Program-made: the position numbers and the translations under genes | Notes under the pieces: generated by a model | Database searches by the model: none | Told to the model about the DNA's origin: nothing | What the model saw: the letters and a program-made list of their open reading frames with translations, nothing else | Sequence record: NC_052652.1 | Source of the DNA: Escherichia phage vB_EcoM_PHB05 | Reading direction: 5' to 3' (one strand) | Length of the DNA: 64,000 bases | Part shown: positions 2,314 to 63,455 of the stretch, in pieces | How positions within the stretch are numbered: the first letter of the stretch is position 1 | Layout of the letters: each line of letters begins with the position of its first letter

Positions 2314-2322
2314 TATTTCTCC

Positions 2323-3460: not shown

Positions 3461-3505
3461 ATTTTCTCCTCTAACGCTCCCATTTGTGGGAGCGATAATA
3501 CTTTA

Positions 3506-42339: not shown

Positions 42340-45215
42340 TGTCAAGAATTAAGCACAGAATTGACAATGTTTTTCAACTGATCGATGGACATATTCAGTT
42401 CTTAGATCGTAATACAGGTTTAACTGTAGATCCTACAGTGCAACACTATGTATTAAACCCACAAAACGTTCTAGCTAATAACAGACACTTTATAAACTGG
42501 ACTGCTCAAGAAGGGCAACCAAACGGGGATGCTACAACAGAAGGTCAATCCGTGCTTATTCTTGGTTGCGCTTATGCATACCTGGCTTCCGGCGATACAA
42601 AGTATTTAGACTCTGCTAAAAAATATTGGCAAGCCTATATAGATTACTTCTTTGGTGGTCAACCTATCCCAGATCCGCCAGCAAAATATCGCCCTAACTG
42701 GATTATTAACGGTAAAGAACCACGTCTTGCACACTATCCTCTTACAGATGATGGCTACCCTACACACGGAGGTTTTAAGGGTAGCTTAATGACGTGGACT
42801 AACGGTAGAACAGTTATTCCTCATGGTGCTCCACATTGGGGAGAATACCTTGACAAAGCATGGTTTGCTTTTAATGGTAATCTAGGATGGAACTCTGTAA
42901 ACGCTACAGTATATGCTGTTAATGCAGATGGAACAACAGATTGGTCTAAGAATGGAGATCAATGGGACGTTGATTGGATCATTGATCGTCTAGGACGTAA
43001 AGTTGATTGGGATGGAAATATCTTAGAAGAAGGTTTTCCAACATCTCAATACGGAACAGTTCAACTAAAAAATACTTCTGTAAACGGTACATATAAATTT
43101 AACTACGCAACTTGTAACCCTGTTGAACACGGTGGTTATTTAATGGAGCGTAACACTATGTGGCATAACAGACCAGTTAACGTTCCGGTAGAAATGGGCT
43201 TTCAGGATAATGCGTCAGATGCCGAAACTTGGTGGTGTGATGCTAATTACCTGATGTACCAAATTACAGGAGAAAGAAAATATTGGCTATGCTGGCAGTC
43301 TTCACTGTTAGTGTGTCAAGATTACTCAAACATTGATATGTTTGATAAATTCTTCCGTAAGTCTACATATGCAACTATCCCGTTTACAGATGGCATCTCT
43401 TACGATTATTCGTATCCATCTACAGCAATACCTAAATATTCAAGAGATACTTTAGGTTATATTGTTATTAGACAAGATGTTGCTGCTCAAACAACATTAG
43501 AACAGCAAGCCATTTGGTTTAAAGTTGATCAGAACTCTAAGTTACGAGTCCAGTTTCAAGGTGTAGATGACGCAGGAGATGGTATTCTTTTCCGTCCAGA
43601 GTTGGAATTAAGTAAGACCAAAGATGAAAATAACACAGTAACTTACCGTTGTGGCTTACCACTGGGTACAGCTAATATGACAAGCATGGATATTCCACTA
43701 TCCAGCTTTATGAGAAGCACCCCTCCGAATGGTGGAACATATATTATCGCAGACCCGCGAATTATTGTTGACTGGGGTGACAATACTGTGGTACAATATA
43801 AGTATGTAACAGGTATTGCTGGAACTAATAATGACCAGATTGTTACTGCATCAATGGATACGGATGGTGGTGTTACTGTTGGTTTTTGGTTAACTCCTAC
43901 ATCAAAAGCTAATGTTAAGTCTATTACATATAGAACATATGAAGATGACTTTAACATGACTATCACGGATGCTCAAGGTTGGAGATGGTGGGCTATGCTT
44001 CCTAAAACGCAAGGGGCATGGAGTACGAAGACTTTATCAGCTTCTGATTTTAAGTTAAGTGCTTACCAGCCTAATCATCCAGAAACAGATCCTAAACCTT
44101 CAGCAATAAACCTTACTGCTGTAGATCAGGTAAATTTAGTTCTCGATACGGCTCCTGTCAATGGTTTAACAGGAACAATAGATTTCTATTGTATTAACGA
44201 TGTACCTGAAAGATATTCGTCATCTTCTGGTGATGATTATACCATGTACTTCCGTATCACTGTACAGGCTTCAAATCCTCATACTGCTAAGTTAGGTGAT
44301 TGTACTATTATTGACTATAAGTTAAACAGTCTTAATTACACACCAGGAATAATTCCATTCTCTAATATCAGTGACCCAAACACTGCATTGTATGATGGTT
44401 GGCGTGGTATTCCATATCCAGGATACCAATACCCTTCCTTATACTGTTTTGCAGGTAGAGATATTGATTGGACGCGTTTAAATAACAGTATCAATTTCTT
44501 GTATGATGCTCAAATGTGGTTTTATAACACGTTTGATCCTGTGATGCCTGGGCCTATGGCACAAGCGTATGTGTGGGATCGTTGGGATGCAAGAAAATAC
44601 GGTGAACCGAATACGTTCACAATGAAACACTGGAATGAAAAAGCGTGGGATGGTTATGAAGCTCGTGCATTCTACTGTGCTTGTCATGCTGTATACGAAC
44701 TTGTACAAAGAGGAGAAACACCTCCTGAAAAACTGGTAACAGTTTGTAAAAATTGGATCAACTATCTTAAATGGTTCCAAGACAATAATGATGGAAGAAC
44801 ACCAACTATCTTTAACCCAGATGGTACAGTTCTTGCACCTATAGATGACTTTACTAGTCATATGTCGGCACTGTTTATGGCGGGTTGTTCAATCATGGGC
44901 TTGGCAGGTTATGATTCACAAATTCCAAACATTGGTATTGTAGCAGACAGATGTTTTGATCTGATTCAGCAAAACTATATTGTGCTTTCCCCTAACCATC
45001 CGATGAATGGTTGCTGGAGTGTTGCACCACGTCCAGATTCAGATAACGGAATGTTCTTTGGTTTCCATGCTGGAGAACTATTACGTGGTTTTGGTTTATA
45101 TGCCTTATATCGTAAACTAAATCCTCAAAACGCCTTACCAATTTTGGACAATAGTAACATACCGACACTAACTGTTCTAACTATGAATGATATTAGTGTT
45201 GATGTAACCAAATAA
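42339..45215 (+). CDS. large virion protein (958 aa), baseplate/tail-associated
   Basis: Long ORF in tail module with AGGAG RBS. Confidence 0.4.
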   Translation: MSRIKHRIDNVFQLIDGHIQFLDRNTGLTVDPTVQHYVLNPQNVLANNRHFINWTAQEGQPNGDATTEGQSVLILGCAYAYLASGDTKYLDSAKKYWQAYIDYFFGGQPIPDPPAKYRPNWIINGKEPRLAHYPLTDDGYPTHGGFKGSLMTWTNGRTVIPHGAPHWGEYLDKAWFAFNGNLGWNSVNATVYAVNADGTTDWSKNGDQWDVDWIIDRLGRKVDWDGNILEEGFPTSQYGTVQLKNTSVNGTYKFNYATCNPVEHGGYLMERNTMWHNRPVNVPVEMGFQDNASDAETWWCDANYLMYQITGERKYWLCWQSSLLVCQDYSNIDMFDKFFRKSTYATIPFTDGISYDYSYPSTAIPKYSRDTLGYIVIRQDVAAQTTLEQQAIWFKVDQNSKLRVQFQGVDDAGDGILFRPELELSKTKDENNTVTYRCGLPLGTANMTSMDIPLSSFMRSTPPNGGTYIIADPRIIVDWGDNTVVQYKYVTGIAGTNNDQIVTASMDTDGGVTVGFWLTPTSKANVKSITYRTYEDDFNMTITDAQGWRWWAMLPKTQGAWSTKTLSASDFKLSAYQPNHPETDPKPSAINLTAVDQVNLVLDTAPVNGLTGTIDFYCINDVPERYSSSSGDDYTMYFRITVQASNPHTAKLGDCTIIDYKLNSLNYTPGIIPFSNISDPNTALYDGWRGIPYPGYQYPSLYCFAGRDIDWTRLNNSINFLYDAQMWFYNTFDPVMPGPMAQAYVWDRWDARKYGEPNTFTMKHWNEKAWDGYEARAFYCACHAVYELVQRGETPPEKLVTVCKNWINYLKWFQDNNDGRTPTIFNPDGTVLAPIDDFTSHMSALFMAGCSIMGLAGYDSQIPNIGIVADRCFDLIQQNYIVLSPNHPMNGCWSVAPRPDSDNGMFFGFHAGELLRGFGLYALYRKLNPQNALPILDNSNIPTLTVLTMNDISVDVTK

Positions 45216-45223
45216 GGAAAATA

Positions 45224-47383
45224 ATGAAACAGGCTATTTTTACTGTAACTCGAAATACGAGAGTAAATGCCAGTTCATTCAGCTATAAGACCGTCGATGG
45301 AACGGCGGTCGCTGGTAGAGATTATGTAGCTAAACAGGGAACAGTAACGTTCCCTTCTGATGCAGATTCTGCTACTGTAGTGGTTGATGTATATGAACGT
45401 CCGGCAAACTCTTTAGATCTTTATTTTACTCTTGAGATTACTAGCATAAGTCAAAATAACATGATGATCAACGAAGAAATTCGTTGTGTTATTACGACTG
45501 ATCAATCGAATACAACCCCGCTAACTTGGCCTGTTGTGAAGTCTAGAATGTTTGATCCTAAGTTTTGGACAATAGATTCTCAAGCAACAGAAAGTTGTTC
45601 TATTATCTCTAATGGTGATTCTTTCACAGCAAGAATGGTTAATAGGACAGTGGCTGGTCTTGCTGGGATTATTTGGTCAACTTACGATAAATATGATCAC
45701 AAAGGATTAGGCTACCAAGAACATTCTGACTTAAGTAAAGAGAAACTTTGGTTTAAAATGGAACTTAGTCAAGGTGTTCCTGGATTAAAAGAAGAAAAAT
45801 TAATACCATCCTTAACAGTGACACTGAAGGATGAAACAGTTCATTATGTATCTCTAAACTTTTATGCAGAAGAAGTTTCAGAAGATGGTAAGACAGCAAC
45901 AATCAAACTAGATTTCTCAAATTTAAAATCTGGGTCAGAAAATGATATTGTTGTTGACACTACACAGATAGATAATATGTTCTTCTCCTTGATCTCCACA
46001 AGGTATCAAGAAATTGAAGAAATTATTCCTGTAGACAATGTGGATCTTTCCTTTAAATTTACCATACTGGAGCCTGACACTGGTTACAGTATGATGAATA
46101 TGGGTAATTTAAATGTTCCAGCACACACCATAAGAATGTGCACATCTTATGATGATATGTATAACCTGACCCCAGAGCGAGTTATTTCTAACACCTACAG
46201 ATTAGGTTATAGGGATATGATTAACCACTATAATGGTATGTCACACTATTATCAGTTTAGTTGGGATGCTGGTTCTAATAAATGGGTTTTGAATAGAACA
46301 GAATATTTAAACCCAGCAACAGAAGCATGGTTTGATAATTTCCACGCTAATGCAAAAGCTATGGGCTACACAGTAATGAATTCCTTAAGTTTTGAACTTA
46401 TGAGTACAGTGTGTCCTGTAGAATGGGTACAACATACTTGGAATGATGATCTGGCTGCTACAGGTTATGAGCCACCAAGTTATGTTTTATCTCCTTCAAT
46501 TGATGAAGGGATGAATTATTTACAAGGTGTAATAAATAAGATAGCTTCTATATCCGCTGCCAATGATCTTCCTGTTATTATTCAGGTTGGTGAACCGTGG
46601 TGGTGGTATAACACAGCTACCAATCTACCGTGTATTTATGATTATACAACCAAAGTTGCATTTAATAATGAAACTGGATTGTATGCACAAGATGTTGGTA
46701 CAGTTAAAAATTATAAAACTGGTACACCATATGATGAATATTATGCATTCCTATCTAAAACATTAGGACTGCGTGTTGCTAAATTTGCAACAGATACCAG
46801 ATTAGCATATCCTGGAGCTAAAGTTACATTATTACCATTTGTGCCATCCATTTTGGGTAATGGTATGATGGAGTTTGTTAACTTCCCTAAAGATTATTAT
46901 ATCCCAGAGAACTTTGACTTTTATTGTTCAGAATGTTATGACTGGTTGTTGGAAGGTAAGATGGAAAAATCTTTCGACGCTATCACAATACCTAATGAGC
47001 AACTAGGTTTTAGTTACGATAAGATACACTATCTTGCAGGGTTTGTTCCAGACGCAACTCTAGCACCATTATATGGCTTTGATCCTGAATCAGACTACAG
47101 AACATATTTGTGGAAAATGATTATAGGTAATATTGTATTGAATGATCAGAAGTTTGTTGGTTTATATCAATACATATGGGCTTACCCACAAATAATGCAT
47201 GATTCAATAACTGTTCTTAATTCAAAATCCCAAGTGTTTTATATGGGTAATGTGCCTTTGAATTGCTACTTGCAAGATATCACTCTTAAACAAGTAAATG
47301 CTGAGATTGCCACCATAAGTGGAATTACATTAGCCACTAAATCTGGAGAAGATTTAGTAACAACACAAAAATTTTATATATAG
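45224..47383 (+). CDS. tail fibre/baseplate protein (719 aa)
   Basis: Long ORF in tail module with AAGGA RBS. Confidence 0.4.
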   Translation: MKQAIFTVTRNTRVNASSFSYKTVDGTAVAGRDYVAKQGTVTFPSDADSATVVVDVYERPANSLDLYFTLEITSISQNNMMINEEIRCVITTDQSNTTPLTWPVVKSRMFDPKFWTIDSQATESCSIISNGDSFTARMVNRTVAGLAGIIWSTYDKYDHKGLGYQEHSDLSKEKLWFKMELSQGVPGLKEEKLIPSLTVTLKDETVHYVSLNFYAEEVSEDGKTATIKLDFSNLKSGSENDIVVDTTQIDNMFFSLISTRYQEIEEIIPVDNVDLSFKFTILEPDTGYSMMNMGNLNVPAHTIRMCTSYDDMYNLTPERVISNTYRLGYRDMINHYNGMSHYYQFSWDAGSNKWVLNRTEYLNPATEAWFDNFHANAKAMGYTVMNSLSFELMSTVCPVEWVQHTWNDDLAATGYEPPSYVLSPSIDEGMNYLQGVINKIASISAANDLPVIIQVGEPWWWYNTATNLPCIYDYTTKVAFNNETGLYAQDVGTVKNYKTGTPYDEYYAFLSKTLGLRVAKFATDTRLAYPGAKVTLLPFVPSILGNGMMEFVNFPKDYYIPENFDFYCSECYDWLLEGKMEKSFDAITIPNEQLGFSYDKIHYLAGFVPDATLAPLYGFDPESDYRTYLWKMIIGNIVLNDQKFVGLYQYIWAYPQIMHDSITVLNSKSQVFYMGNVPLNCYLQDITLKQVNAEIATISGITLATKSGEDLVTTQKFYI

Positions 47384-47391
47384 GAGTAAAA

Positions 47392-49965
47392 ATGTCAACT
47401 ACAATTACTAATTTACCAGAAACATCAAAAGTTAATGATTCTGATTACCTGGTTTTAGACCAATCTGATAAGACTGTTAAAAGCACAGTTTCCAAATTTC
47501 TTGCTGACACTGGGGTGGTTTTAGCCACCCAGTTGAAAGATACAGATGGAGCAGATTTAATACAATCCTCAAATGGTAATACTGTTCAGGAAGAGTTGAA
47601 TAACAATCTTCTTAATGATCGTGAACAGTGGCGTCGTAGTCTTGCAGAGGCAGGGTTAACACTTGTCGATGGTAGCTTTGAAGAGGGGGCTACAGTGGGC
47701 AGTGTAACTGATGCTATCTGGTACATGGCAGGTGCTCAGTGCTACACATGGGATGGTGTATTACCTAAAGACGTACCACCTAAATCAACCCCGACATCAA
47801 CTGGTGGTGTTGATTCTGGTGCTTGGGTTAGTGTTGGTGATATGTCATTAAAGGATAATCTTTCAAACTCCAGTAATGATAATTACGGTGATGCGCTGGT
47901 AGCAGTTAAGCAGCCGTATACTACCGCAATAAACAGAACGCAGCATGATAAAAATGCTGATGTACTTGATATTTCTGATTTTGGTGTAGATATAACTGGT
48001 GCTTCTGATGAGGGCAGTAAGTTACAACAGATATTTAATGAGTTGGCCGCAGCAGGCAAGTCTATTCGTATGCACGGGTCTGTAAAGACTACTATTAACT
48101 TAGATATACGGTGTAATGTGCTGTTTGAACCAGGGTTTAAATTAACTGGCGTGAAGCTAGAAACTGGACCGCAGACCTACATTAATATTTTTAATCGTAA
48201 TATAGATGTAAGCCATATTGTTCTAGATGGCATTGTTATGTGTTTCTACCCTGTAAGTTCCACGACTACTGTTAGAAACAAGAGATGTATTACGTTTACA
48301 TCAAATACGTTAGAAGACTCGTGTGTCCGGGTGGGCGGTGATAACCTCTCTGTGCGTAACGTGTTAATTTCTAACAATACTTTTAAGAACTCCGGGTCAC
48401 GTGTTCCAACAGCAATTCGCCTAATCAATGTCTCAAACGTTGAGGTAAGTTTTAACCTTATCCAGGAGTATGGTAGGCCTATTTATCAAACAGCAACTCG
48501 CTCTTTCTCTAACTACAATGTCAATATACACCACAATAATGTGGTTTGTGATTATGGTATAGTTCTTGAGGGTACTACTGCTTTTAGAGTTAGTAAGTTC
48601 ACAATTGCTGACAATGACATTGTTTGTGAGGTAAGGAACACAGCAGCAGGTGGACGAGATGCGATTGATGTCCGCTATGGCACTAGCGGACAAATACTCA
48701 ATAACAACATCAGAACTAATGGCAGAAACATTCGTTTATCCAATACTAAAGCTGATGTTCTATTTAATGATATGGTATCGAGTGCAACAAGTGCATTCTC
48801 TGTATTGATGGCTAGTTGCTATGAATCATCTTTTATTGGTAATAAAGTTTTCAATAATTCTACTGCTGAAATTATTGTTGTGCATGTGCAGACAGAGGCT
48901 GGAGGTCTTTACACGAGTAACAACGTAAGAATCGAATCCAACACTATCAAAGGTTTTGGTCGTCTGATTCGTGTGTTGGACACCAAGGATTATGTTGTTA
49001 CTAACAATAGATTAATAAGGACTTCAAACAATGGTAATGCAGTTATTGTTGCAGATGGTACTAGTGACAGAGGCCAGGTGCATAGCAATGTGGTAGTTGG
49101 TCCTGCTGGGGTTGTTGTATCTAGTATCAGCGGAACCAACAATGCAACAACCACTGCTGATACACTTCTGAGTGTTGCAGCTAACAGCAAGACCGTAACA
49201 GCCGTGGCGAATGGATTAGTTGATCCAGACTTGAATAATTCGAAGGCATTCATCTTCAATGTTCAGGTATCTGATGTTCAGATGTTACGAGCTTTATCAT
49301 CAACTGGTGCATCAAACGCCAAGACAGTATCTCAATTCATGGCTAGGGTATCCGGTGCAACCTTAGCTTGGAATGGTACTGCCTCAGTATCTGAAGTGGG
49401 TGGACCACCTGACATCTTCGTAAATGGTGTTCTTCAAGACTCATACGGTGCAGAAGATTATATATTCTACCGGTCAGGTATGCTTATTGACTCACAGAAT
49501 AAACTCAGTGTCCGTGACTTCCAGTGTACTGGCGATGGGGATACTACCGATGATGGTACAGGGGAAATGACGCTCCGTAATATGGCAGCAGCACAAGCAG
49601 CTGAGGGGGCTATTCACAGCGCATTCTTCCGTTCTCCTCTGGTTATGGATGGGGTTATTTACAATCCTGACACCACAGGAATTTATAAAAAATCTTACTT
49701 TGATACATCTCTAGATCCTAGAATGGCTATAGGACAAAAAGCTGATGGAACCTACGTTATTATTTGTGTTAATGGTAGATACGCAGATGGGGTAAGTCCA
49801 GGCTGCACTATGCAGCAGCTAGCATCTAAGTTTGTAGCCCTGGGTTGTATCAACGCAATGAACTTGGATGGCGGTGGTTCAGCTACTCTTTGGTATAACG
49901 GTACTATCCTTAATACCCCGTCGGATGGAAGTGAACGCCCTGTTTACCATTGTATGTATGTGTAA
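47392..49965 (+). CDS. tailspike protein with beta-helix-like central region
   Basis: 857 aa; N-terminal anchor-like region; Asn-rich repeats (NNTFKNSG, NNNIRTNG, NNRLIRTSNNGN); last 211 nt are part of the tandem duplication. Confidence 0.5.
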   Translation: MSTTITNLPETSKVNDSDYLVLDQSDKTVKSTVSKFLADTGVVLATQLKDTDGADLIQSSNGNTVQEELNNNLLNDREQWRRSLAEAGLTLVDGSFEEGATVGSVTDAIWYMAGAQCYTWDGVLPKDVPPKSTPTSTGGVDSGAWVSVGDMSLKDNLSNSSNDNYGDALVAVKQPYTTAINRTQHDKNADVLDISDFGVDITGASDEGSKLQQIFNELAAAGKSIRMHGSVKTTINLDIRCNVLFEPGFKLTGVKLETGPQTYINIFNRNIDVSHIVLDGIVMCFYPVSSTTTVRNKRCITFTSNTLEDSCVRVGGDNLSVRNVLISNNTFKNSGSRVPTAIRLINVSNVEVSFNLIQEYGRPIYQTATRSFSNYNVNIHHNNVVCDYGIVLEGTTAFRVSKFTIADNDIVCEVRNTAAGGRDAIDVRYGTSGQILNNNIRTNGRNIRLSNTKADVLFNDMVSSATSAFSVLMASCYESSFIGNKVFNNSTAEIIVVHVQTEAGGLYTSNNVRIESNTIKGFGRLIRVLDTKDYVVTNNRLIRTSNNGNAVIVADGTSDRGQVHSNVVVGPAGVVVSSISGTNNATTTADTLLSVAANSKTVTAVANGLVDPDLNNSKAFIFNVQVSDVQMLRALSSTGASNAKTVSQFMARVSGATLAWNGTASVSEVGGPPDIFVNGVLQDSYGAEDYIFYRSGMLIDSQNKLSVRDFQCTGDGDTTDDGTGEMTLRNMAAAQAAEGAIHSAFFRSPLVMDGVIYNPDTTGIYKKSYFDTSLDPRMAIGQKADGTYVIICVNGRYADGVSPGCTMQQLASKFVALGCINAMNLDGGGSATLWYNGTILNTPSDGSERPVYHCMYV

Positions 49966-53120: not shown

Positions 53121-54101
53121 ATGGCAAAGCCACAATACTACCCTGACTGGGCGACACAAACAGTAACCCTCCCAGGAACGGGAAACACAAACAAGATTAG
53201 ACCAAAAGAAACCATCCGTAATGTCGGTATGGACTTTGGTCAGATTATGACTTGTGAAGAAATGAACTGGATCTTAAACAATATTGGGTCTTGGATTCGC
53301 TATATGCAAGATGAATTCTTCCCAACATTGCCTACTACATATCTTCCTATAGTCGGTACTAAAATTACAATGGCAGGTGATGCTACAGGTGAAGTTACAT
53401 GGAACGGTAATGCTGCTGTAACATTGTCTATTCAAGTCGTAGATAACAGCCATAATCACTTATCAGCTAACATTACAGACGCAACATCAAACCAAGTTGT
53501 AGGGAATGTCCTTGTTAAGCGTGATAATGGTGGTGCTATCTATGCAGGTGATATTTACACTTGTGGTACAGGTGCTACAGATCCTGCAACATTATTTTTT
53601 AGAAACTATAACGGACAAACAGTAGGCAATATGTCTTCTGAACCAGGTGCAGGTGGTCAACTCTATATTTATAGAATAAATCCATCTACTGGAGGAACAT
53701 CTTGTGGAGTTCGTTTGTATGATGCAGGTTATGTTTTAATAGACAATCCTCGTTCTAATTCTGGTCAAGACACTGGCAATGGTAATGCTCTTGTAAGATT
53801 AGATTATCTTAACTCAAGACTAAACTCATTGCAAAGTACATTGCAAAATAATATTAACAACGTTAATAGCAACTTGCAAGGCCAAATTAATAACATTAAC
53901 AATAGAGTTTCTTCTGTTGTGTCTTCTATCCGTCTAGGTACACGTATTAAAGCTGGTGTATCTGAATCTCCTTTCTATGCTGGTCACGTGATCACAGGCT
54001 GGGGTTTTGGTGATAAGAAAGAACTTCGTGGTGCTTGGTATTGGTCTGCTCCGCTACAATATTACATTAATGGTAGGTGGATAACAGTAACCAACGTTTA
54101 G
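53121..54101 (+). CDS. tail fibre protein (hypothetical)
   Basis: Asn-rich heptad-like segment NNINNVNSNLQGQINNINNRVSS; AAGGAG RBS. Confidence 0.4.
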   Translation: MAKPQYYPDWATQTVTLPGTGNTNKIRPKETIRNVGMDFGQIMTCEEMNWILNNIGSWIRYMQDEFFPTLPTTYLPIVGTKITMAGDATGEVTWNGNAAVTLSIQVVDNSHNHLSANITDATSNQVVGNVLVKRDNGGAIYAGDIYTCGTGATDPATLFFRNYNGQTVGNMSSEPGAGGQLYIYRINPSTGGTSCGVRLYDAGYVLIDNPRSNSGQDTGNGNALVRLDYLNSRLNSLQSTLQNNINNVNSNLQGQINNINNRVSSVVSSIRLGTRIKAGVSESPFYAGHVITGWGFGDKKELRGAWYWSAPLQYYINGRWITVTNV

Positions 54102-54113: not shown

Positions 54114-54665
54114 ATGAAAAAAGATGTTATTTACACTGGCTTTGAACTATATCAACCAGAATTGACAGAAGAAAATGTCATGTATCTTTCAATAGGTGCT
54201 GGTTTTCTTAAAGATAAAGATGGTAATGATTGGTACGAAATTCAGAAATATTTATCCAAAAATTACCCTGATGCCTATTTCTTAACTCTAGATCACAACA
54301 ATGTAGTTGTTGCAGCTACGAAAGATGTTTCTACATATTTTCCCGCTGGTCTTACTGTTCTTGTAACATACAATGTTCCAGATAAGATAGAAGAAGAAAG
54401 CAACCTAGGATCGTGGAGATATGACAATGGTAAGTTTGTTTCTCATAATGGGTTTGCAATAGAAGATGCCAACCTTAAAATGGAAAAAGAATTAACTTGG
54501 GCCACAAATCAAATATCTGCAATTCAAGATTTAGAGGAATTACAAGGTTTATCTGAAGAACAAAAAGATTGGTTAGGAAAAGTTAAACTATATCGTGCAA
54601 CACTGATTCAAATTAACGTTGAAGATGCACCTAATATAACTTGGCCTACAAGACCTAAGAAATAG
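54114..54665 (+). CDS. tail fibre assembly/structural protein (hypothetical)
   Basis: 183-aa ORF with AAGGAGA RBS. Confidence 0.35.
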   Translation: MKKDVIYTGFELYQPELTEENVMYLSIGAGFLKDKDGNDWYEIQKYLSKNYPDAYFLTLDHNNVVVAATKDVSTYFPAGLTVLVTYNVPDKIEEESNLGSWRYDNGKFVSHNGFAIEDANLKMEKELTWATNQISAIQDLEELQGLSEEQKDWLGKVKLYRATLIQINVEDAPNITWPTRPKK

Positions 54666-54674: not shown

Positions 54675-55016
54675 ATGGAGCTAACAGAAGTATGGGATAT
54701 CGCTAAAGAGGCGATTATCCCTCTTATTGGTGTAATCTGGGTGGTCTTCAAACAGAAGATAGATGATATAGCAAGTGATTTGGATAAAATGGAAGACAAA
54801 TACCGTGAACTAGAAAAGAAGTTGGTGTTTGTTGAATCCACTTATGCTACCAAAGCAGAACTTGCTCAAATGCTTAACCAGATCAACTCTACATTAATGG
54901 CAAATAATACTGCCTTAGAACAGAAAATTGAAAAAATAATGGATTTAAAAAATGCTCCTGTTCAATTAATGCTAGAGGAGATTACGAAGCGCACACAAAG
55001 TAAGGACAAAAATTAA
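54675..55016 (+). CDS. hypothetical protein with N-terminal hydrophobic segment and coiled coil
   Basis: 113-aa ORF. Confidence 0.35.
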   Translation: MELTEVWDIAKEAIIPLIGVIWVVFKQKIDDIASDLDKMEDKYRELEKKLVFVESTYATKAELAQMLNQINSTLMANNTALEQKIEKIMDLKNAPVQLMLEEITKRTQSKDKN

Positions 55017-57430
55017 TGGCGAATTTTCCAACATATCCTGCTACGACACTAGAACAAGGTGTTGATCTGGTTATATTCTCGTCTAACCAGATGCATGATG
55101 TTATTAACGGGGATGCTACAGCAACTGTAGAAACCGAAACAGGTTTAATACCTACACTGCGTAAAGCACTTGTTGATAACTTCTTCTTTAAGAGTCCTGT
55201 TGCTTGGTCAGCAGGATCAACTGAAACTGTATTTAACCAGTTACGTTATTTTGAAAACGGCATCTTGAGTGGGTACTACTATGCCCCATCTGCCACTACT
55301 GCGAACCCTGTACCTATGCAGGGTACACCTGTAGGAGACAGTAACTGGACTCTGTATGCTCTTAAAACTGAACAGTTAGCTTCAGATGTGTATCCTTGGT
55401 ATTTTAAAGGTGCTACAGGGTATGAGACAGAAATCAGTCCTCCTTATATCTTTGATAATGCTATTGTCACCATTAACGGTGTAATTCAGATTCAGGGTGA
55501 AGCATTTACTATCAAAGATAGTAAAATTATTCTGGCAGAACCATTAGGTTTAGATCCGTCTACTGGTCTACCTAACAAATTGTTTGCTTTTATTGGTAAA
55601 ACAACAGCCTCTACTTCTTACGTAGAGAAAAACCTTTTGTCATCTACCACTGGTGCAGCAATGGTTGGTCTTCCATCTGGAGGCAATCTGTTACAAGCTC
55701 AATACTTTGTAACGCCTGAGCAGTTTGGTGCAATTGGTGATGGAGTTACCGATGATACTCAAGCAATTCTAAAAACCATTACTTTCGCTAACACGAATAA
55801 CATTCAAGTACGTGCAGATAAGAATTATAGATTCACAAGCTCAATTGCTATGTCTGGTATTCGTTGGTATGGTGGTACATTCACTGGTAACGGTGGAACA
55901 ATGATTTCTACTGTGTCCTGTTGGATTGAAAACGTTCGCTTTGAAAAATGTTATGTTAAGATGTTAGGTGGTGATTGCCGATTCTATCGTAATATCTTCT
56001 CCAACGCAACATCTACAGCAGCATTCTTAATGCAAGCAATGACAAGTGAAGGTACGTTGGACTTCAGTTACAACGAGATGTATGGTTGTAAATATGCGAT
56101 CCTGCAACAAGGTACTGGAGAAGTAATGACCTATGGGCGTTACTCTAACAACTACATTCACGATATCAAAGGTGATGCTATTGAACTTAACGTAGTTCAA
56201 AGACACTACACTGAAGGTTTGATCATCGAGAATAACCACATTGCTAACGTAGATGCTTCTGGACAAGGTGCAAACTGGGGTATTGGTATTGGTGTAGCAG
56301 GTAGTGGCCCATATGGTGTTGATGCTCCTGATTCACAATATGTACGTAACTTCAGTATCGTTGGAAATAGAGTTTACAATTGCCGTCAATGTCTACACGT
56401 TGAAATGGGTAAAAACTTCACAATACGTGATAACGAAGTTTATCCTAACACAGCAGTTTCAACAGGTACAGGTTTAACTACTTGTGGTGTTGCATTATAC
56501 GGATGCCAAGACTTTGAAGTTGATGGTTTAACTGGTTATCTGCTTAATGATCCGTCTGTTTCAACACGCATGGTCTTTATTGACTGGGGTGTTAACGGTG
56601 GAAGATATGCGGGGCCACCAATTAACTTTACAATTAAGAATTTGGATATTCCAGAATCTTCGATTGAGATTGCAACGGCTGGATCAGACGCCTGGGAAAA
56701 CTCTACAATTGTTAGTAACATCAATTGTAATGATTTTAAATGGCGTGGGCTACCATCTAGCTCTACTTTTAATAATATTCGTTGCCGTAGTATTGACTTT
56801 ATTGGTCAACACGGAAGCGGAGAAGGAAGTGGTGGCGGTTTCTATGCTCGCAGCCAATTCACTTATATGAAGTGGGTAGGATGTACAGCACTTAGCGGAG
56901 ATGAAACAACAGTTTCTTTTGCTAAAATCTACACGGATCGTTGCGATCAGGTTGGAAATAACTTTGGTGTTCCAACTGCTGTTGATGGTACAGGTCATCG
57001 TGGGCCAGTCTTAACCACTATTTCTGAACAATATTTTACAGATTATGATGAATTCCCAGGTGGGCGTGACTTCCCTACTGGAACAGTTATTCATTGTGCA
57101 AGCGGTAAAAAACACGTTGTTACAGTAGGTGGTGCTTTCTTTAGTAATAAAGAGAAAATAAAAGCAACTGTTACAGGTCAAACCTATCTACAGTCTAATG
57201 CTTTAAACTGGGCTAGTAATGGCTACGCTAAAGCGGCAGGTACTAAGATTGTTATTCCAGGTGCAGGAGCAAATGGTGGCGATCTTGTGACAACTATAGC
57301 ACGTGCTACATATGTGACAAATAGTTTGTACACAATAGATATTGCAGATCCAATTGTAACACCTACAGCAGAGAATACACAAATTAAAGCTCTGAACCCT
57401 GTTACTTTTGTTACTGTCAATAATGCTTAA
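55016..57430 (+). CDS. tailspike/tail fibre protein (804 aa), beta-helix-like
   Basis: Long ORF with Gly/Asn-rich repeats. Confidence 0.45.
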   Translation: MANFPTYPATTLEQGVDLVIFSSNQMHDVINGDATATVETETGLIPTLRKALVDNFFFKSPVAWSAGSTETVFNQLRYFENGILSGYYYAPSATTANPVPMQGTPVGDSNWTLYALKTEQLASDVYPWYFKGATGYETEISPPYIFDNAIVTINGVIQIQGEAFTIKDSKIILAEPLGLDPSTGLPNKLFAFIGKTTASTSYVEKNLLSSTTGAAMVGLPSGGNLLQAQYFVTPEQFGAIGDGVTDDTQAILKTITFANTNNIQVRADKNYRFTSSIAMSGIRWYGGTFTGNGGTMISTVSCWIENVRFEKCYVKMLGGDCRFYRNIFSNATSTAAFLMQAMTSEGTLDFSYNEMYGCKYAILQQGTGEVMTYGRYSNNYIHDIKGDAIELNVVQRHYTEGLIIENNHIANVDASGQGANWGIGIGVAGSGPYGVDAPDSQYVRNFSIVGNRVYNCRQCLHVEMGKNFTIRDNEVYPNTAVSTGTGLTTCGVALYGCQDFEVDGLTGYLLNDPSVSTRMVFIDWGVNGGRYAGPPINFTIKNLDIPESSIEIATAGSDAWENSTIVSNINCNDFKWRGLPSSSTFNNIRCRSIDFIGQHGSGEGSGGGFYARSQFTYMKWVGCTALSGDETTVSFAKIYTDRCDQVGNNFGVPTAVDGTGHRGPVLTTISEQYFTDYDEFPGGRDFPTGTVIHCASGKKHVVTVGGAFFSNKEKIKATVTGQTYLQSNALNWASNGYAKAAGTKIVIPGAGANGGDLVTTIARATYVTNSLYTIDIADPIVTPTAENTQIKALNPVTFVTVNNA

Positions 57431-57470: not shown

Positions 57471-59441
57471 GTGATTTTAACACGTCCAAATAGTGCCATT
57501 GCAGACATGGTAGAGTCTCGCTATAGAAAGCGTAGAAGTTTTGCAAGTGGTTTTACCTTAAGAGATGCTCGTGAAGCATTGCTCTTTGAAGCTGACGGTA
57601 ACTACTATCAGTGGAAAGGTTCTCTACCTAAAGTTGTACCTGCTAACTCTACTCCTACATCCACTGGAGGGATTTCAGATACAGCTTGGAAAAATGTGGG
57701 TAATGCAGATGACATTGCTCAAATAGAATCAGAATTAGATGCTATTGAAGCTGAAATTGAAGATCTTAGAGAATCCATCCCAGAAGCTGGTAAATCAGCT
57801 TACCAGATTGCCGTAGACAATGGTTTCCAAGGTACTGAGACACAGTGGTTGGCTTCTTTAAAAGGTGATCCAGGTGCTCCATTAAAGCTATTAGGGACAC
57901 TATCTAATACCAACCAATTACCTACAAGTGGAAACAATGCAGGGGATGCATGGATTGTAGGCGAGGATATGTATGCTTGGGATGGTACTGCTTGGAGAAA
58001 AGTAAACTCACAGGGGCCAGAAGGTAAATCTGCTTATGAAGTATGGCTTGCAGCAGGAAATGAAGGTACAGAACTAGATTATCTTGCTTCAATTAAAGGT
58101 GATAAAGGGGAGCCTGGCCCAGAGGGGCCACAAGGTGTGCCAGGTAACAATGCTAATGGTTTTGATTACCAAGGCGCAGCTAATTCCGTTTCAGATCTTC
58201 CTTCTGCATCTCATGGAAACACATCTCAAGCATGGAGTGTTGGTACATATCTATACGTGTCAAACGGTGTAGAATGGATCAATATGGGCGCTATAGTGGG
58301 GCCAAAAGGAGATAAAGGCGACAAAGGAGATAAGGGTAACACTGGTGATTCAGCTTATCAAGTCTGGTTAAATGCTGGTAACGTTGGTACTATTGACGAA
58401 TATATTGCCTCTCTGAAAGGAGAAAAAGGTGATAAGGGAGACAAGGGTGATCAAGGTGCACAGGGTATACAAGGCTTGACGGGGCCAACTGGTGCAGGGT
58501 TGACCATTATTGACATTCTGACTAGCACTTCTGAACTGCCACAAACTGGGGAAGATGGTGATGGTTATCTGATCAATAATGAACTTTGGGTCTGGTTGCA
58601 AGGAGCCACAGAGTGGACAAATGTTGGTCGTTTAGCTGGTACTCCAATCACTGCAAAAGGACACGTTGCGTTTGCAAGTGCGCTTCCTCCTACAGCCAAT
58701 TACGGTGATGCTTATCTGACGGAAGATACAGGTCATCTTTACATTTACACCTATAATGAACAAACTCAAACTGCTGAATATGTAGATATGGGTAGTTTGA
58801 AAGGTGATAAGGGTGAAAAAGGTGAGAAAGGTGACGCTGGTACTAACGGTACAGACGGTGCAACTTGGATTGTTAAAACAACAGATCCAATCTCTAGTGA
58901 TGGTAAACAAGGTGATTATGCCTTTAATATCTCCACTGGCGAAGTGTTCTTAAAAACATCTGCAACTGTCTGGACTTCTCAAGGTACACTACCTAGTATC
59001 ACAGATGCACCTAGTGATGGTAAGACTTATGCTCGTAAAGATGGGGCATGGGAAGAACTCACTAATTCTGTAGATGGTCAAGATATAGTTCCAACAAAAG
59101 TAACAACTAATTTTATAGAGGTTACAGCATATACCAATAATTCTGTTACAGGGGACTGGACACCTCCAGGAACACATAACATGAATGTGTTGAATCTTAC
59201 TGGTAACGCTACTATAAAAGCATGGCCTGGTGTCGAAGATAGTACAAAACCTAAACCATTCTCTGCAATAGTTTATCTTATCCAAGATGCCACTGGAGGT
59301 CGTACTGTTACTTTAGATCCATCTTACAAAGTAATTGGTTCCAGTGATATTAATACAGATCCTAACGGAGTAACAATACTACAACTAACATATTGTGGTG
59401 TTGGCGATTACGTGGATGCTATTGTTGCTAAACGCACATAA
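57471..59441 (+). CDS. tail fibre protein with collagen-like Gly-X-Y repeats
   Basis: GPKGDKGDKGDKGNTGDS, KGEKGDKGDKGDQGAQGIQGLTGPTGAG, KGDKGEKGEKGDAGTNGTDG; GTG start after AAAGGAG. Confidence 0.55.
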   Translation: MILTRPNSAIADMVESRYRKRRSFASGFTLRDAREALLFEADGNYYQWKGSLPKVVPANSTPTSTGGISDTAWKNVGNADDIAQIESELDAIEAEIEDLRESIPEAGKSAYQIAVDNGFQGTETQWLASLKGDPGAPLKLLGTLSNTNQLPTSGNNAGDAWIVGEDMYAWDGTAWRKVNSQGPEGKSAYEVWLAAGNEGTELDYLASIKGDKGEPGPEGPQGVPGNNANGFDYQGAANSVSDLPSASHGNTSQAWSVGTYLYVSNGVEWINMGAIVGPKGDKGDKGDKGNTGDSAYQVWLNAGNVGTIDEYIASLKGEKGDKGDKGDQGAQGIQGLTGPTGAGLTIIDILTSTSELPQTGEDGDGYLINNELWVWLQGATEWTNVGRLAGTPITAKGHVAFASALPPTANYGDAYLTEDTGHLYIYTYNEQTQTAEYVDMGSLKGDKGEKGEKGDAGTNGTDGATWIVKTTDPISSDGKQGDYAFNISTGEVFLKTSATVWTSQGTLPSITDAPSDGKTYARKDGAWEELTNSVDGQDIVPTKVTTNFIEVTAYTNNSVTGDWTPPGTHNMNVLNLTGNATIKAWPGVEDSTKPKPFSAIVYLIQDATGGRTVTLDPSYKVIGSSDINTDPNGVTILQLTYCGVGDYVDAIVAKRT

Positions 59442-59480
59442 TCAAAGCCCCTTCGGGGGCTTATTATTTAAGGAGATTAA

Positions 59481-62300
59481 ATGTATCCTATTCCTTTATT
59501 TATGTCAACAACATCAGCTTCAGTAGTAACAGCTACATCTATAACCACTTCCTCTATTGGTATTGCAATAGTTGGTAGTAAAAAGCAACTGACATACACA
59601 GTTTCACCAGAAGATGGTGCGTTATTTGATATAGCTTTTTCATCTTCAGATAATACCAAAATGGTTATAGATAATAATGGTATGATGGAGTTTGTTGCTG
59701 AAGGCGGTTTTGATGCAATAATGACAGCTAAAAATAATTTAGGTGCTGTCTTAACTGATCAATCTGGTGGCTATGCTTCAGAATTAAGTGTGTACACTGA
59801 AAGTCTGTCTGCTATGGATGCAGGAACTACTCAACAATTGGTTGCTACAATCAGTCCAGAAGGTGCTAAAGACCTTCCAGACATGGTGATTACGTACACC
59901 ACAACAGATCCAGAAGTAGCTACTGTAAGTCCTACAGGGTTAATAACTGCTCTTAAAGATGGTAGTTGCCGTATAGGTTGTACTGCAACTTATCAAGGAA
60001 CAGTGGTGGCCTCTGATAGTTCTTATTTAGGTGTTAATGCTGTTCCTGTTATTTCTAATGTAACAGCCGTGGCAAACAGCTATGGAGACATTCGTGTTGC
60101 TTGGGATGTAGCTGATCCGCTAGATGGTGATACTTATACTGTAGAAGTATTAGATTTAAGTAATAACAGTGTCCAGTGGACTACAACAACCACGAATACT
60201 CATGCTTACTTTGATATCTCTGACTCTATTCCTCTTTATGGGTTTGCTCCAACATACCTTAAAATTAGCGTTAAGAGCACCAAAGCAGCACCCGTTATCT
60301 TTAATAACTCAATAGCTACAGATGATTCGTTCATTAAAGAAGTTATTGTCTTTGCTGGACAAGATAACGTAAATGCACACTTTACAGAACTATCTGGTGC
60401 AAATAAAGCAGTAATGAGTAGCACAACAACCCGTAATGCATATGCTACGCAACGTGGTTTAGCAAATGCTGAAGTTCTTCCGTTAAATGCAGCTTCTGGA
60501 TCATCAGCAGCAGATAAATATGCAGATGATAAAGCCGGAACAGGTACACCAGACAACTACTGGTATGATCTGGATAACGCAGCAGATGGGCCATGCTTAA
60601 CTAATTTTATCACTAAAGTCACACCTTATGCAAGTAAGGTTAAAGCAATTATTTGGGGACAAGGTGAAAATGATGCTGTATCAGCATCTTCGACTGTTGC
60701 AGGTAGATACAGTAACACTACACGTTACCATGATGCTACGATAGCTATCTTTGATAAGATGCGTACAATAGTTCCTGCTTCTCAAGCAAAAATTGTTTGG
60801 CAGATCCTAGGACGTTCTTATCTATATGGTGTAGAAGTTAATGGTGTGGATTGGCAGAAATACAGAAATGTACAAAGAACCATCTCTACAGCACGTGACG
60901 ATGTTATCATTGGTTCTTGGGTGGATGGTGCTGAACGCTACAGTGGTTATGTTTATGAAGAAGGTATTGATGGTCGTATCCATTATATTTCTTCTGTATA
61001 CCAAACAGCAGCTACAAAACTTGCTAAATCAGCAGCAGACGGTACAGACTTAACATCAACATCACCTGTTTGGGTTGATATGGCTGTTCCAACTGGAGCA
61101 ACAGCTATTTCCCAAGCTAATCAAGATACAATTTTAGCATGGGATGCTCAAGGTTATAGTAAACACTACTTCCGTAATATTAACGTCTTAACAGCATCTG
61201 TATTAACTGAACAAACGCTTAATACGAACAGTTATACGTTTACCTATGCAGATCAAGTAGAACAATATGGTTTTGCAGCAGGTACTACGATATTTGATGT
61301 TGCATATTATGACGAAGCAAATGATGTGTTATCTCCTTTAGTACGTTTTAATGTTAGCGTTACAGCAGGAAAAGTAGAAGATAAACCTGTCGTGATGGAC
61401 TATGATTTGACGCAAGAAACTCTTCCATCAGATGTTAAGGTTAATGGTGGGAACTCTTTTGCTCGTGCCTCTGGAGATATACTTGTAGCCACTAACACCT
61501 TGGTTGCTCCGTTGGAGTATGTTGGTACTACCCCTGTAGGTAGACGTGTAACAGCTAACACAGCTACACAAATTTTTGTCAACAACGCCTTAACAAGTGC
61601 AAGCCCGTGGGTAAAGACCAACTTAACTGTTGCAGCTTCATCTGATAAATCTCCGGCTGGAACTACTGCTAATGTATTCAAATTAACTCCGACTACAACC
61701 TCTGGTAGTCATATCTTAACTGCAACATATACTAACGCGTACAACATATCTGCCGGACGTAACTGGTCTGCCTCTGTTTTCTTGAAAGCGAACGGGATTA
61801 CTAAGGCCAAACTAAGATTAAAAGCAGGAACTGAAGTTAATGAGGGTACTTTTGATTTAGCAGCAGGTACATTCACAGGAAGTGAAGCTAATATTATATC
61901 TATGGGCAACGGTTGGTATCGTGCTATTCTGCATAAAACAGGGATAGCCAAACAGTCCTCCATAAGTTTTGAAATAATTGCCTTGGATGCAACTGGTGCG
62001 GAGATTTTCGCTGGAGATGGTACTAGTAACCTTGCAGTTTGGTTGCCACAGCTTGAAGGTGCTTCTACAGGAGAAACATCAAAAGCTGGATCGCCTTATG
62101 TCTGCACATATCCTGGAAATTTAGGAGGAGTATCCTTCACTATACCAAGGAACGGACATACTGGTGTGGATGTTTACTATTCCAACGGAGACGTTGTTCG
62201 TGATGTATTCTCTGGCACAGCATCTACTTGGACAATAAACTACTCCAGCTTGTACGATTGGGGATCAGTCTTTATTACAGGTTTGAAATATTACGACTAA
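59481..62300 (+). CDS. tail-associated protein with Ig-like (Big_2-type) domains and SASA/SGNH-type carbohydrate esterase domain
   Basis: N-terminal Ig-like repeats; motifs FAGQDN and IWGQGENDA match GQSN / WxQGESD signatures of sialate-O-acetylesterase-like esterases. Confidence 0.5.
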   Translation: MYPIPLFMSTTSASVVTATSITTSSIGIAIVGSKKQLTYTVSPEDGALFDIAFSSSDNTKMVIDNNGMMEFVAEGGFDAIMTAKNNLGAVLTDQSGGYASELSVYTESLSAMDAGTTQQLVATISPEGAKDLPDMVITYTTTDPEVATVSPTGLITALKDGSCRIGCTATYQGTVVASDSSYLGVNAVPVISNVTAVANSYGDIRVAWDVADPLDGDTYTVEVLDLSNNSVQWTTTTTNTHAYFDISDSIPLYGFAPTYLKISVKSTKAAPVIFNNSIATDDSFIKEVIVFAGQDNVNAHFTELSGANKAVMSSTTTRNAYATQRGLANAEVLPLNAASGSSAADKYADDKAGTGTPDNYWYDLDNAADGPCLTNFITKVTPYASKVKAIIWGQGENDAVSASSTVAGRYSNTTRYHDATIAIFDKMRTIVPASQAKIVWQILGRSYLYGVEVNGVDWQKYRNVQRTISTARDDVIIGSWVDGAERYSGYVYEEGIDGRIHYISSVYQTAATKLAKSAADGTDLTSTSPVWVDMAVPTGATAISQANQDTILAWDAQGYSKHYFRNINVLTASVLTEQTLNTNSYTFTYADQVEQYGFAAGTTIFDVAYYDEANDVLSPLVRFNVSVTAGKVEDKPVVMDYDLTQETLPSDVKVNGGNSFARASGDILVATNTLVAPLEYVGTTPVGRRVTANTATQIFVNNALTSASPWVKTNLTVAASSDKSPAGTTANVFKLTPTTTSGSHILTATYTNAYNISAGRNWSASVFLKANGITKAKLRLKAGTEVNEGTFDLAAGTFTGSEANIISMGNGWYRAILHKTGIAKQSSISFEIIALDATGAEIFAGDGTSNLAVWLPQLEGASTGETSKAGSPYVCTYPGNLGGVSFTIPRNGHTGVDVYYSNGDVVRDVFSGTASTWTINYSSLYDWGSVFITGLKYYD

Positions 62301-62303: not shown

Positions 62304-62327
62304 AAAAGGAGCCATTAGGCTCCTTTT
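62304..62327. terminator. bidirectional terminator hairpin AAAAGGAGCC-ATTA-GGCTCCTTTT
   Basis: Perfect stem with flanking A and T runs between convergent genes. Confidence 0.65.
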
Positions 62328-62335: not shown

Positions 62336-62767
62336 TTAATCAGTGAAAATTACGCTCACATCTTCTTTAGAGAAGAGTTTATGATCTTCACCTTTTGTCT
62401 CAAGAGTTTCATACAGGTTAAGAAGTTCTGAAACATCTTTCTCTACCAGTTTCTTCAATGTTGCAATTTTCTGTTTGCGACTCTTAATACGTTCAGCTAC
62501 GACCTTACGTTGGTATCCAGCAGTACGATAACCTGAGAAAGTTACACCAGTAAGACTTGCAGTTACAGGATCGTAGTGACGTTCAATCTGAAATTTATTA
62601 AAAGGTACAGCGTCATCACGAATAATCTTACCGCCATTACTTACTTGACGAAGACCAGTAACTTGTTCCAGTCGTGCCATAGAAATCTTTGGAGACAGAC
62701 CAGAGTCCAGGTTCATACCGTTGTTAATCAGTGCTTTCAGGGTGATTTTGCTGTTCAGTGTACTCAT
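62336..62767 (-). CDS. hypothetical protein co-transcribed with DNA methyltransferase
   Basis: 143-aa ORF overlapping the MTase 3' end by 44 nt. Confidence 0.4.
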   Translation of the reverse strand: MSTLNSKITLKALINNGMNLDSGLSPKISMARLEQVTGLRQVSNGGKIIRDDAVPFNKFQIERHYDPVTASLTGVTFSGYRTAGYQRKVVAERIKSRKQKIATLKKLVEKDVSELLNLYETLETKGEDHKLFSKEDVSVIFTD

Positions 62768-63455
62768 TTAGTCGTTCCTCCGCTTGCTTAAAAATATTTA
62801 CATCGGCTTCACAGCCTAAGTATTCTCTACCTGTTAAAAGTGCCGCAACTTGTGTTGTTGCACTTCCAGAGAAGAAGTCTAAGACTACATCTCCTTCGTT
62901 GGTATGTATATTAATAAGGTCACAAAACAAAGTCAAGTGTTTTTGTGTTGGATGAAAACGATCTGCTCCTTGATAGATAGGATACTCAAACACACCCTTA
63001 TGGTAGGAAGCATTGAAGGTTGGCTTCGAACCTTTAACACAAACAATAGCCATCTCTTTAGCGTTACTAAGGTAGTTAACACCACTATTGATGGGTACAG
63101 GGTTTGTTTTAATCCATTCAATAGTACGGAACATACGAAAACCAAGCGGTTCAAGGATTTCACGTAGCTCCTGGATCTTCCAGATATCATACCAAACTAT
63201 GCAAGTACCACCTTTTCTAAGCACCCTATAGGCTTCTTTGAATACTTCTTTAAAGTAAGGAATATCTACAACGTCCCAGTCACCAAAGTTGTAAGATACA
63301 CGGAATCTATCCGTATTTTTTCCAGTAGGCTCTCCAGATTGAAAATTTGTGTCACGAGAAATAGCATATGGTGGGTCAGTAAGAATCAAATCTACACTAT
63401 TGCTTTCGAGGGTTTGCAGGTAGTTTAATGCAGTGTTGTTTACAAATTCGCTCAT
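62724..63455 (-). CDS. DNA methyltransferase (N6-adenine or N4-cytosine, beta-class motif order)
   Basis: DPPY catalytic motif near N-terminus and FFSGSATT SAM-binding motif near C-terminus. Confidence 0.7.
   Translation of the reverse strand: MSEFVNNTALNYLQTLESNSVDLILTDPPYAISRDTNFQSGEPTGKNTDRFRVSYNFGDWDVVDIPYFKEVFKEAYRVLRKGGTCIVWYDIWKIQELREILEPLGFRMFRTIEWIKTNPVPINSGVNYLSNAKEMAIVCVKGSKPTFNASYHKGVFEYPIYQGADRFHPTQKHLTLFCDLINIHTNEGDVVLDFFSGSATTQVAALLTGREYLGCEADVNIFKQAEERLNEYTEQQNHPESTD

Follow-up and report, generated by a model that had tools for sequence, protein, structure and literature searches.

A modular tail-fibre-module protein of a phi92-like Escherichia phage with an SGNH-fold, SASA-like domain carrying aspartate in place of the catalytic serine

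The window analysed here is a 64,000-nucleotide stretch of Escherichia phage vB_EcoM_PHB05 (NC_052652.1), and the gene under study is the open reading frame (ORF) located at positions 59481 to 62300, the product of which contains a domain resembling the sialate O-acetylesterases of the SASA family. This ORF is the last gene of a plus-strand block of baseplate and tail-fibre genes, the genes beyond the following terminator being encoded on the opposite strand. A preliminary description, made from the letters of the sequence, had proposed a plus-strand gene for a protein of 939 amino acids (aa), placed it in a tail module together with three or more further genes for fibres or spikes, and interpreted its product as a virion-borne esterase deacetylating surface polysaccharide. 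The gene itself was confirmed by its ATG start codon and by the ribosome-binding site AAGGAG, and an AGGAG ribosome-binding site is annotated at the equivalent place in the record of phage phi92. Its assignment to the tail-fibre module also holds, as does the presence of the other fibre and spike genes, for which six loci were identified (42339-45215, 45224-47383, 47392-49965, 53121-54101, 55016-57430 and 57471-59441). The protein matches PHROGs 32204 and 11922, both described as 'tail protein'. From synteny and homology only, we infer that it is located in the virion. The coordinates of the features are collected in Table 1.

Table 1. Features of the 59481-62300 gene, of its protein and of its surroundings in the window (nt, nucleotides; E, expectation value; pLDDT, predicted local distance difference test; AF2, AlphaFold2).
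Feature	Position	Strand	Evidence or remark
ORF, 939 aa	59481..62300	+	ATG start; modular tail-fibre-module protein, presumed virion location
Conserved N-terminus, aa 1-28			precedes the Big_2 domains
Two Big_2 Ig-like domains, aa ~29-190	59565..60050	+	Pfam E 7.4e-14, two stretches
FN3/Ig-like beta-sandwich domain a, aa 191-280	60051..60320	+	beta-strand model, pLDDT >90
SASA/SGNH-fold esterase-like domain without Ser nucleophile, aa 281-525	60321..61055	+	AF2 model, Foldseek, homologues
FAGQDN motif, aa 291-296	60351-60368	+	
Block I, G293-Q294-D295-N296	60357..60368	+	alignment column; Asp codon GAT at 60363-60365
Block III, W392-G-Q-G-E-N-D-A399	60654..60677	+	canonical for SASA; alignment; IWGQGENDA = aa 391-399
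His501 (block V histidine)	60981..60983	+	alignment column
FN3/Ig-like domain b, aa 526-628	61056..61364	+	pLDDT >90; aligns to gp65 FN3-like repeats
Low-confidence connector, aa 629-700	61365..61580	+	pLDDT <50 over aa 633-741
C-terminal beta-sandwich domain, predicted glycan-binding type, variable/swappable	61581..62297	+	motifs GNGWYR, AGDGTS..W.PQLE
Ribosome-binding site AAGGAG	59470..59475	+	5 nt 5' of the ATG; read from sequence
Terminator-like hairpin between the collagen-like fibre gene and the ORF	59445..59462	+	7 pairs, 5 G-C, T-rich tail (consensus scan)
Strong hairpin terminator, common to the convergent minus-strand genes	62304..62327	.	10-bp stem, then T-run
958-aa tail protein	42339-45215	+	PHROG 2871
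719-aa protein: Calx-beta, NCTSP_N, NCTSP TIM barrel	45224-47383	+	Pfam E 3e-21 (NCTSP_N), 7e-82 (TIM barrel)
857-aa tailspike-like protein: Tail_spike_N (TSP1/gp66-type) anchor, C-terminal NAGPA phosphodiester glycosidase	47392-49965	+	Pfam E 1.3e-25 (NAGPA)
Short tail fibre	53121-54101	+	library matches
Caudo_TAP assembly chaperone of the short tail fibre	54114-54665	+	library matches
Colanidase-type tailspike	55016-57430	+	PHROG 6117, E 9e-270
656-aa fibre: Tail_spike_N anchor, collagen-like G-x-y repeats (GDKGDKGDKG)	57471-59441	+	GTG start; weak Fibritin_C-like match

In the full-length model, the protein appears as a chain of Ig/FN3 beads. The N-terminal Ig-like repeats of the preliminary description were recovered by Pfam as two Big_2 stretches (E 7.4e-14), for which an all-beta model was obtained with pLDDT values of 85-96; the annotation of the corresponding product of phi92, gp152, mentions a 'lambda protein V like fold'. 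The label FN3 given to domain a is our own reading. This domain aligns to the domain preceding the second SASA-like domain of the phage N4 protein gp65 and shows weak internal similarity to aa 521-600, and PHROG 15324 matches aa 452-632. The connector sequence is conserved in P0080 and P0081 and aligns to gp17 of Shigella phage Sf11 from aa ~639 onwards. Tail_spike_N or a comparable particle-binding domain was found in two neighbouring genes and not in the ORF.

The esterase-like domain lies between the two FN3-like domains. The match of the ORF itself to Pfam SASA (PF03629) is below threshold (14.6 bits for a cut-off of 24.8, E 0.025). A word-indexed homologue search with the esterase region returned 2 matches and was replaced by an exhaustive phmmer search of aa 271-640 against 1.8 billion cluster representatives, which yielded 77 relatives. 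Thirteen of the 20 relatives scanned passed the Pfam SASA gathering threshold, so that the homology of the ORF to this family is supported transitively despite its own sub-threshold score. Among known structures, the family profile further matches two of the SASA type, 1zmb (E 4e-5) and 2apj (E 8e-5), and the GDSL protein 4k3u. Because the full-length Foldseek search was swamped by Ig-domain arrays, a separate AF2 model of aa 281-525 was produced; it reached a pLDDT of 96.3 and a predicted template modelling (TM) score, pTM, of 0.93, and displays the alternating strands and helices of the SGNH fold. Compared with the Protein Data Bank (PDB), this model retrieved more than 50 SGNH, GDSL, SASA and CE2 esterases and PatB acyltransferases with a probability of 1.0 and TM scores of 0.5-0.6, 1zmb and 2apj among them. 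Compared with viral models, it retrieved first the orthologues of phages alia and phi92, then many phage SGNH tail proteins. In agreement with these searches, FAGQDN lines up with block I of the relatives and WGQGENDA with their block III, so that neither motif is a chance resemblance. The homologues and the predicted fold together argue that aa 281-525 are a genuine SGNH-fold domain homologous to SASA-family esterases, as the preliminary description had proposed.

By contrast, the catalytic centre does not conform to the esterase pattern. The preliminary description had equated FAGQDN with the GQSN signature and IWGQGENDA with the WxQGESD signature of sialate-O-acetylesterase-like enzymes. 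The second equivalence stands, since IWGQGENDA is a canonical block III; for the first, the position is right and the chemistry is not, as residue 295 is an aspartate and the motif offers no catalytic serine. In an alignment of 81 domain copies, the nucleophile column was scored in 78 and contains Ser in 59, Asp in 6 and Ala in 3. In the domain model, Asp295 sits where strand 1 ends and helix 1 begins, the place of the nucleophile in SGNH structures. Within block III, G395 is conserved in 76 of the 81 rows, E396 in 54 and D398 in 61, and the column of His501 is His in 56 rows. The canonical DxxH motif places the aspartate three residues before the histidine; here the candidate partners of His501 are D497, four residues upstream, and D482, which lies in a poorly conserved column. 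The most important catalytic residue, the serine, is thus missing from the predicted fold, whereas block III and His501 are kept. The proposal of a virion-borne deacetylase, which rested on reading FAGQDN as GQSN, is accordingly not supported.

The aspartate was found in all orthologues inspected, namely those of phi92, PD06 and ALITA and an 86%-identical representative (P0003), and also in the Avunavirus Av-05 clade (P0001 and P0004), of 46-49% identity, in which block I reads GGDN. A sequencing error at this codon was ruled out on the basis of its presence in independent genomes and in this divergent clade. In a neighbour-joining tree, the Asp-bearing sequences are monophyletic; their sisters are P0006 and P0007 (GQSN) together with P0008 (GQAN), and the whole is nested within a large Ser-bearing group. 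Since the Asp clade is monophyletic and nested among Ser-bearing sequences, the tree indicates that the Ser-to-Asp change is a single derived event, subsequently retained in the phi92-like and Avunavirus clade. Elsewhere in the family, independent changes put Ala, Met, Leu, Val or Glu in the place of the serine, and P0001, which belongs to the Asp-bearing clade, has Gln for the histidine. Judged from the alignment, these independent losses of Ser and the loss of His in P0001 point to a relaxed catalytic constraint.

The closest match of the central part of the protein is N4 gp65 (PDB 9lc0, 9yf4, 9yf5 and 9yft), the ten-domain non-contractile tail sheath and receptor-binding protein of that phage (PMC13434306), which the preliminary description had missed, as it had the separate C-terminal domain. 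The family profile matches gp65 with E 1.5e-132 over the whole protein. It covers a first SASA-like domain at residues 430-604, with the motifs FAGESQ and WGQGDQDA, and, at residues 618-1076 (domain E 3.9e-75), a second one that reads GINQ, has no Ser and is flanked by an FN3-like domain and an FN3 domain; additional FN3 repeats are matched as well. The structures agree, the full-length model aligning to gp65 over 480 columns (E 1e-28, root-mean-square deviation 4.2-4.5 Å) and the isolated aa 281-525 model ranking gp65 first in Foldseek (TM 0.80, E 3e-11). The SASA-like domains of gp65 are not called esterase-like in PMC13434306.

The N-terminal domains of gp65, NCTSP_N (PF23844) and TIM-barrel_NCTSP (PF23845), gave no Pfam hit in the ORF. 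They are encoded instead by the separate gene 45224-47383, which is devoid of the FN3-SASA cassette, so that in phi92-like phages the halves of a gp65-type protein are divided between two genes. The product of 45224-47383 is the counterpart of phi92 gp142, a proposed binder of the NGR glycan (bioRxiv 10.64898/2026.04.02.716166; PMC8594841). We considered whether the ORF could encode the protein that the BASEL papers call 'glycan deacetylase tail fibre', directed at enterobacterial common antigen (ECA) or NGR; this identification was rejected, as that protein is the TIM-barrel homologue of gp65 and phi92 gp142, here 45224-47383 (PMC8594841; bioRxiv 10.64898/2026.04.02.716166). In the nearest Ser-bearing relatives (P0005, P0007, P0012 and P0013), and in P0008 with Ala at the nucleophile position, NCTSP_N and the TIM barrel are fused upstream of FN3-SASA-FN3. 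In one of these, the metagenomic P0005 (2270 aa), a DUF2612 baseplate wedge domain, NCTSP_N, the TIM barrel, two SASA-like domains (GQSN and GQSL) and FN3 repeats are fused in a single chain; to judge by this predicted protein, a gp65-type module can be joined directly to a myovirus baseplate wedge protein. Because NGR-like gene clusters of Achromobacter include O-acetyltransferases (PMC8669472), one may speculate that Ser-bearing gp65-type cassettes are true deacetylases in some hosts, and that the cassettes of E. coli phages (GESQ and GINQ in N4, GQDN in phi92-like phages) may have degenerated.

Pfam gave no hit for the C-terminal domain, which was identified by sequence searches of the PDB. 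Over their full length, residues ~639-937 can be aligned with the 'extra appendage' at the C-terminus of the Sf11 Dit protein gp17 (9occ_C; phmmer E 1.4e-19), an appendage left unmodelled and described as of unknown function (PMC12724387). Residues ~689-863 match the head-spike fibre Rcc01080 of RcGTA (6tb9_F3; phmmer E 6.3e-14), the E value reaching 1.1e-49 in a profile search with the C-terminal domain. GNGWYR and GDGTSG..WGAQLE-type motifs are common to the domain and these homologues, and Rcc01080 was shown experimentally to bind capsular polysaccharide (PMC10218006).

The DNA of the region is 97-99% identical to that of Justusliebigvirus (phi92-like, Stephanstirmvirinae) E. coli phages such as W22, EC.P2, SD2, BME3, alia and PaulScherrer. 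Full-length orthologues with 97-99% protein identity occur in 17 Justusliebigvirus records, a second long allele with 85-86% identity in 8 records, and matches confined to aa 1-628 in many Justusliebigvirus and Phapecoctavirus-like records. When the two long alleles are compared, identity is 97-99% over aa 1-628 and only 62% over aa 701-939. Such divergence at the tip is the usual signature of a receptor-binding tip, and the pattern suggests that the C-terminal domain is probably the part that determines specificity.

The distribution of domains among the relatives further reveals a modular organization. In the short form (628 aa; PD06 and others), the N-terminus and FN3-SASA-FN3 are directly followed by the same downstream gene, whereas the long form of this window (939 aa) has the C-terminal domain added. 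In a third architecture, found at the same syntenic position on a related metagenomic phage contig (P0080, 496 aa), the N-terminus is joined to the C-terminus and aa 191-628 are precisely absent. The N-terminal Big_2 region is the only part present in all three. In phi92 (FR775895.2, 5387-7049), loss of aa 199-272 (~220 nt) and a frameshift close to aa 335 split the locus into gp152 and gp153; the locus stops at the aa-628 boundary and has no C-terminal domain. Because of this deletion and frameshift, the gene would be either dispensable for phi92, as a pseudogene, or mis-sequenced in that record. The absence of aa 191-628 from P0080 and the broken gene of phi92 argue that the SASA cassette is dispensable.

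Orthologues are named 'tail protein', 'lateral tail fiber protein' or 'non-contractile tail sheath' in the records, and 'tail carbohydrate esterase' in those of ALITA and KMB37; this last name appears to originate in automated structure-based annotation with no assay behind it. The BASEL label for the Bas62 orthologue is 'lateral tail fiber protein with intimin and glycosidase domains', and the BME3 paper mentions the protein only as a 939-aa 'tail fiber' (PMC12210895). Literature searches covering phi92 gp152/gp153, the name 'tail carbohydrate esterase', SGNH domains of gp65 and the proteomics of Phapecoctavirus returned nothing relevant. In ALITA (PP359570.1, 1501-4320), two separate features are annotated for the orthologue, a 'tail carbohydrate esterase' at 1501-3660 and a 'tail protein' at 3802-4320, which suggests a frameshift or an annotation artefact in the C-terminal region. 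Three records of about 146 kb labelled 'Campylobacter phage' C3, A110a and A145 (MG065656, MG065689 and MG065645) are 98-99% identical to this gene and are probably mislabelled or contaminant Justusliebigvirus genomes.

At least seven genes of the receptor apparatus were found in the window (Table 1). A NAGPA domain is unusual as the enzymatic head of a phage spike; that of the 47392-49965 product might target phosphodiester-linked surface glycans. Downstream of the ORF, the convergent minus-strand genes 62336-62767 and 62724-63455 overlap by 44 nt, and related records describe the orthologue of the latter as a DNA methyltransferase. The sign of the GC skew switches near these convergent genes and near 16 kb, in both cases where the direction of transcription changes.

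Taken together, these results favour, with a probability of about 0.6, a reading of the protein as a modular accessory adhesin of the tail-fibre apparatus in which the SASA-like domain is non-enzymatic or at most non-canonical. The N-terminus and the two Big_2 domains would probably form the constant scaffold or attachment part, and the FN3/SASA-like/FN3 cassette an optional module of the gp65 type. With its Ser nucleophile having become Asp in the common ancestor of the phi92-like and Avunavirus clade, the SASA-like domain has most likely lost the serine mechanism of O-acetyl hydrolysis, and it probably serves as a carbohydrate-binding pocket and/or a rigid spacer. The swappable RcGTA head-spike-type domain at the C-terminus would bind surface polysaccharide and set specificity.

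Several observations weigh against this adhesin model. The Big_2 region contains no recognised baseplate-attachment domain, the RcGTA homologue of the C-terminal domain sits on the head, and the C-terminal region is only moderately confident in the full-length model, aa 633-741 being poor. No data on activity, binding or virion proteomics of the protein were found in the literature searched. The remaining active-site blocks (QGENDA and His501) are well kept, and Asp295 is itself conserved at 46-49% identity, a pattern that would also fit a functional pocket with altered chemistry. It should be noted that Asp295 is placed by the alignment and by the strand and helix order of the model, and His501 by its alignment column, so that the predicted geometry of this pocket stays provisional.

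It is from this same pattern that the main alternative draws its support, namely an active virion-borne O-acetylesterase acting on a surface polysaccharide (colanic acid, ECA, O-antigen or an NGR-like glycan), with Asp295 or a neighbouring residue as nucleophile or general base. The SGNH fold, the canonical block III and His501 are those of an enzyme, the conservation of Asp295 at 46-49% overall identity suggests selection on that position, and the closest Ser-bearing relatives, which are of the gp65 type, look catalytically competent (GQSN, QGENDA, His). Virion SGNH esterases are moreover well established, the G7C gp63.1 and Vi-phage tailspikes being cited in PMC8594841, and two GenBank records carry the esterase name, an argument that is blunted by the apparently automated origin of that name. 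We nevertheless regard an active esterase as unlikely, since the defining Ser nucleophile is absent, one member of the Asp clade (P0001) is also without the histidine, an otherwise orthologous gene (P0080) is missing the entire cassette, and the phi92 gene is broken. No SGNH hydrolase that uses an Asp nucleophile is known to us, no dedicated search for one having been made, and this too counts against an active enzyme.

The protein could also be a passive surface decoration, similar to Hoc or to the Ig-like C-terminus of lambda gpV, conferring weak, non-specific adherence or virion stability without a specific receptor, the SASA-like domain being a spacer. Its Big_2 region resembles PHROG 215 'structural protein with Ig domain' and PHROGs 28902 and 885 'major tail protein', phi92 is still infectious with a disrupted gene, and the short form has no C-terminal binding domain. 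These features would leave unexplained the homology of the C-terminal domain to a fibre experimentally shown to bind glycan (PMC10218006), the allelic divergence of receptor-binding type confined to that domain (62%, against 97-99% elsewhere in the protein) and the location of the gene in a block of receptor-binding-protein genes, not among head genes, which together make a purely decorative role rather improbable. A functional re-tooling of the site, as opposed to its decay, is likewise rather improbable: Asp295 together with the intact block III and His501 might mark an SGNH-fold enzyme that has a carboxylate as nucleophile or general base and acts on substrates by a new chemistry, or an acetyl-glycan 'reader' partnering the 45224-47383 protein. 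If such a reader existed, phi92-like myoviruses would have split the NGR-glycan recognition machinery of N4 gp65 across two genes. Finally, a non-virion protein, that is a secreted or lysis-released soluble enzyme or lectin, would account for the lack of a particle-attachment domain recognised by Pfam and for the terminator-like hairpin that parts the gene from the upstream fibre gene, and it is highly improbable given that the gene is co-oriented with the structural operon and last in it, that its product is homologous to the virion proteins N4 gp65, Sf11 Dit and RcGTA head spike, and that no signal peptide is evident when the N-terminus is read by eye, no predictor having been run.

Phage tail proteins with SGNH domains were already known, and dozens of deposited genomes contain this gene, which some of them label an esterase; what is added here is a map of its domains, its connection to the gp65 cassette, the identity of the C-terminal domain and the missing nucleophile. 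The phi92-like phages have a very broad host range, attributed to a 'Swiss-army-knife' set of receptor-binding proteins in which the roles of individual genes are still unclear (PMC8594841). The practical consequences are modest: the spreading 'carbohydrate esterase' label, which rests on a fold without the catalytic serine, calls for correction, and a candidate pseudo-esterase or lectin is put forward. Specificity is likely set by the C-terminal domain, which could therefore be useful for host-range engineering.

Among known systems, N4 gp65 is the best match in sequence and structure for aa ~195-630, with the same FN3/SASA-like/FN3 arrangement and, in the aligned second SASA-like domain (GINQ), the same lack of the canonical Ser. 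It differs in starting with NCTSP_N and a TIM barrel and in ending with tail-plug-binding FN3 repeats, whereas the protein studied here starts with Big_2 domains, ends with a different domain predicted to be of the glycan-binding type, is only ~20% identical and belongs to a contractile-tailed myovirus. With the SASA/DUF303 esterases (PF03629; 1zmb, 2apj; sialate O-acetylesterases), it shares the SGNH fold, the GQxN frame, WxQGExD and the His; unlike them, it has Asp295 for Ser, a Pfam score below the cut-off and large insertions between blocks I and II, and the domain is embedded in what is probably a virion protein.

The esterase spikes of phage G7C (gp63.1), of Vi phages and of Pectobacterium and Klebsiella phages likewise carry SGNH domains on tail appendages within an apparatus of several receptor-binding proteins, and such virion SGNH esterase tailspikes are structural neighbours of the domain (TM 0.5-0.6, identity 11-17%). 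However, these spikes belong to the GDSL-type subfamily and not to SASA, are trimeric with N-terminal particle-binding domains, and have intact catalytic triads and demonstrated deacetylase activity. The CE2 esterases (2wao, 2w9x) are also structural neighbours with the SGNH fold, and the title of entry 2w9x, an active site with divergent catalytic and non-catalytic binding functions, offers a possible precedent for glycan binding at an SGNH site; this is an analogy only, as CE2 enzymes keep the catalytic Ser and have no close sequence relationship to the protein. Lastly, Rcc01080 (6tb9) and the Sf11 gp17 appendage share with it a homologous C-terminal region of ~300 aa and common motifs, carried in those systems by different scaffolds, the base of a head spike and a Dit ring, respectively.

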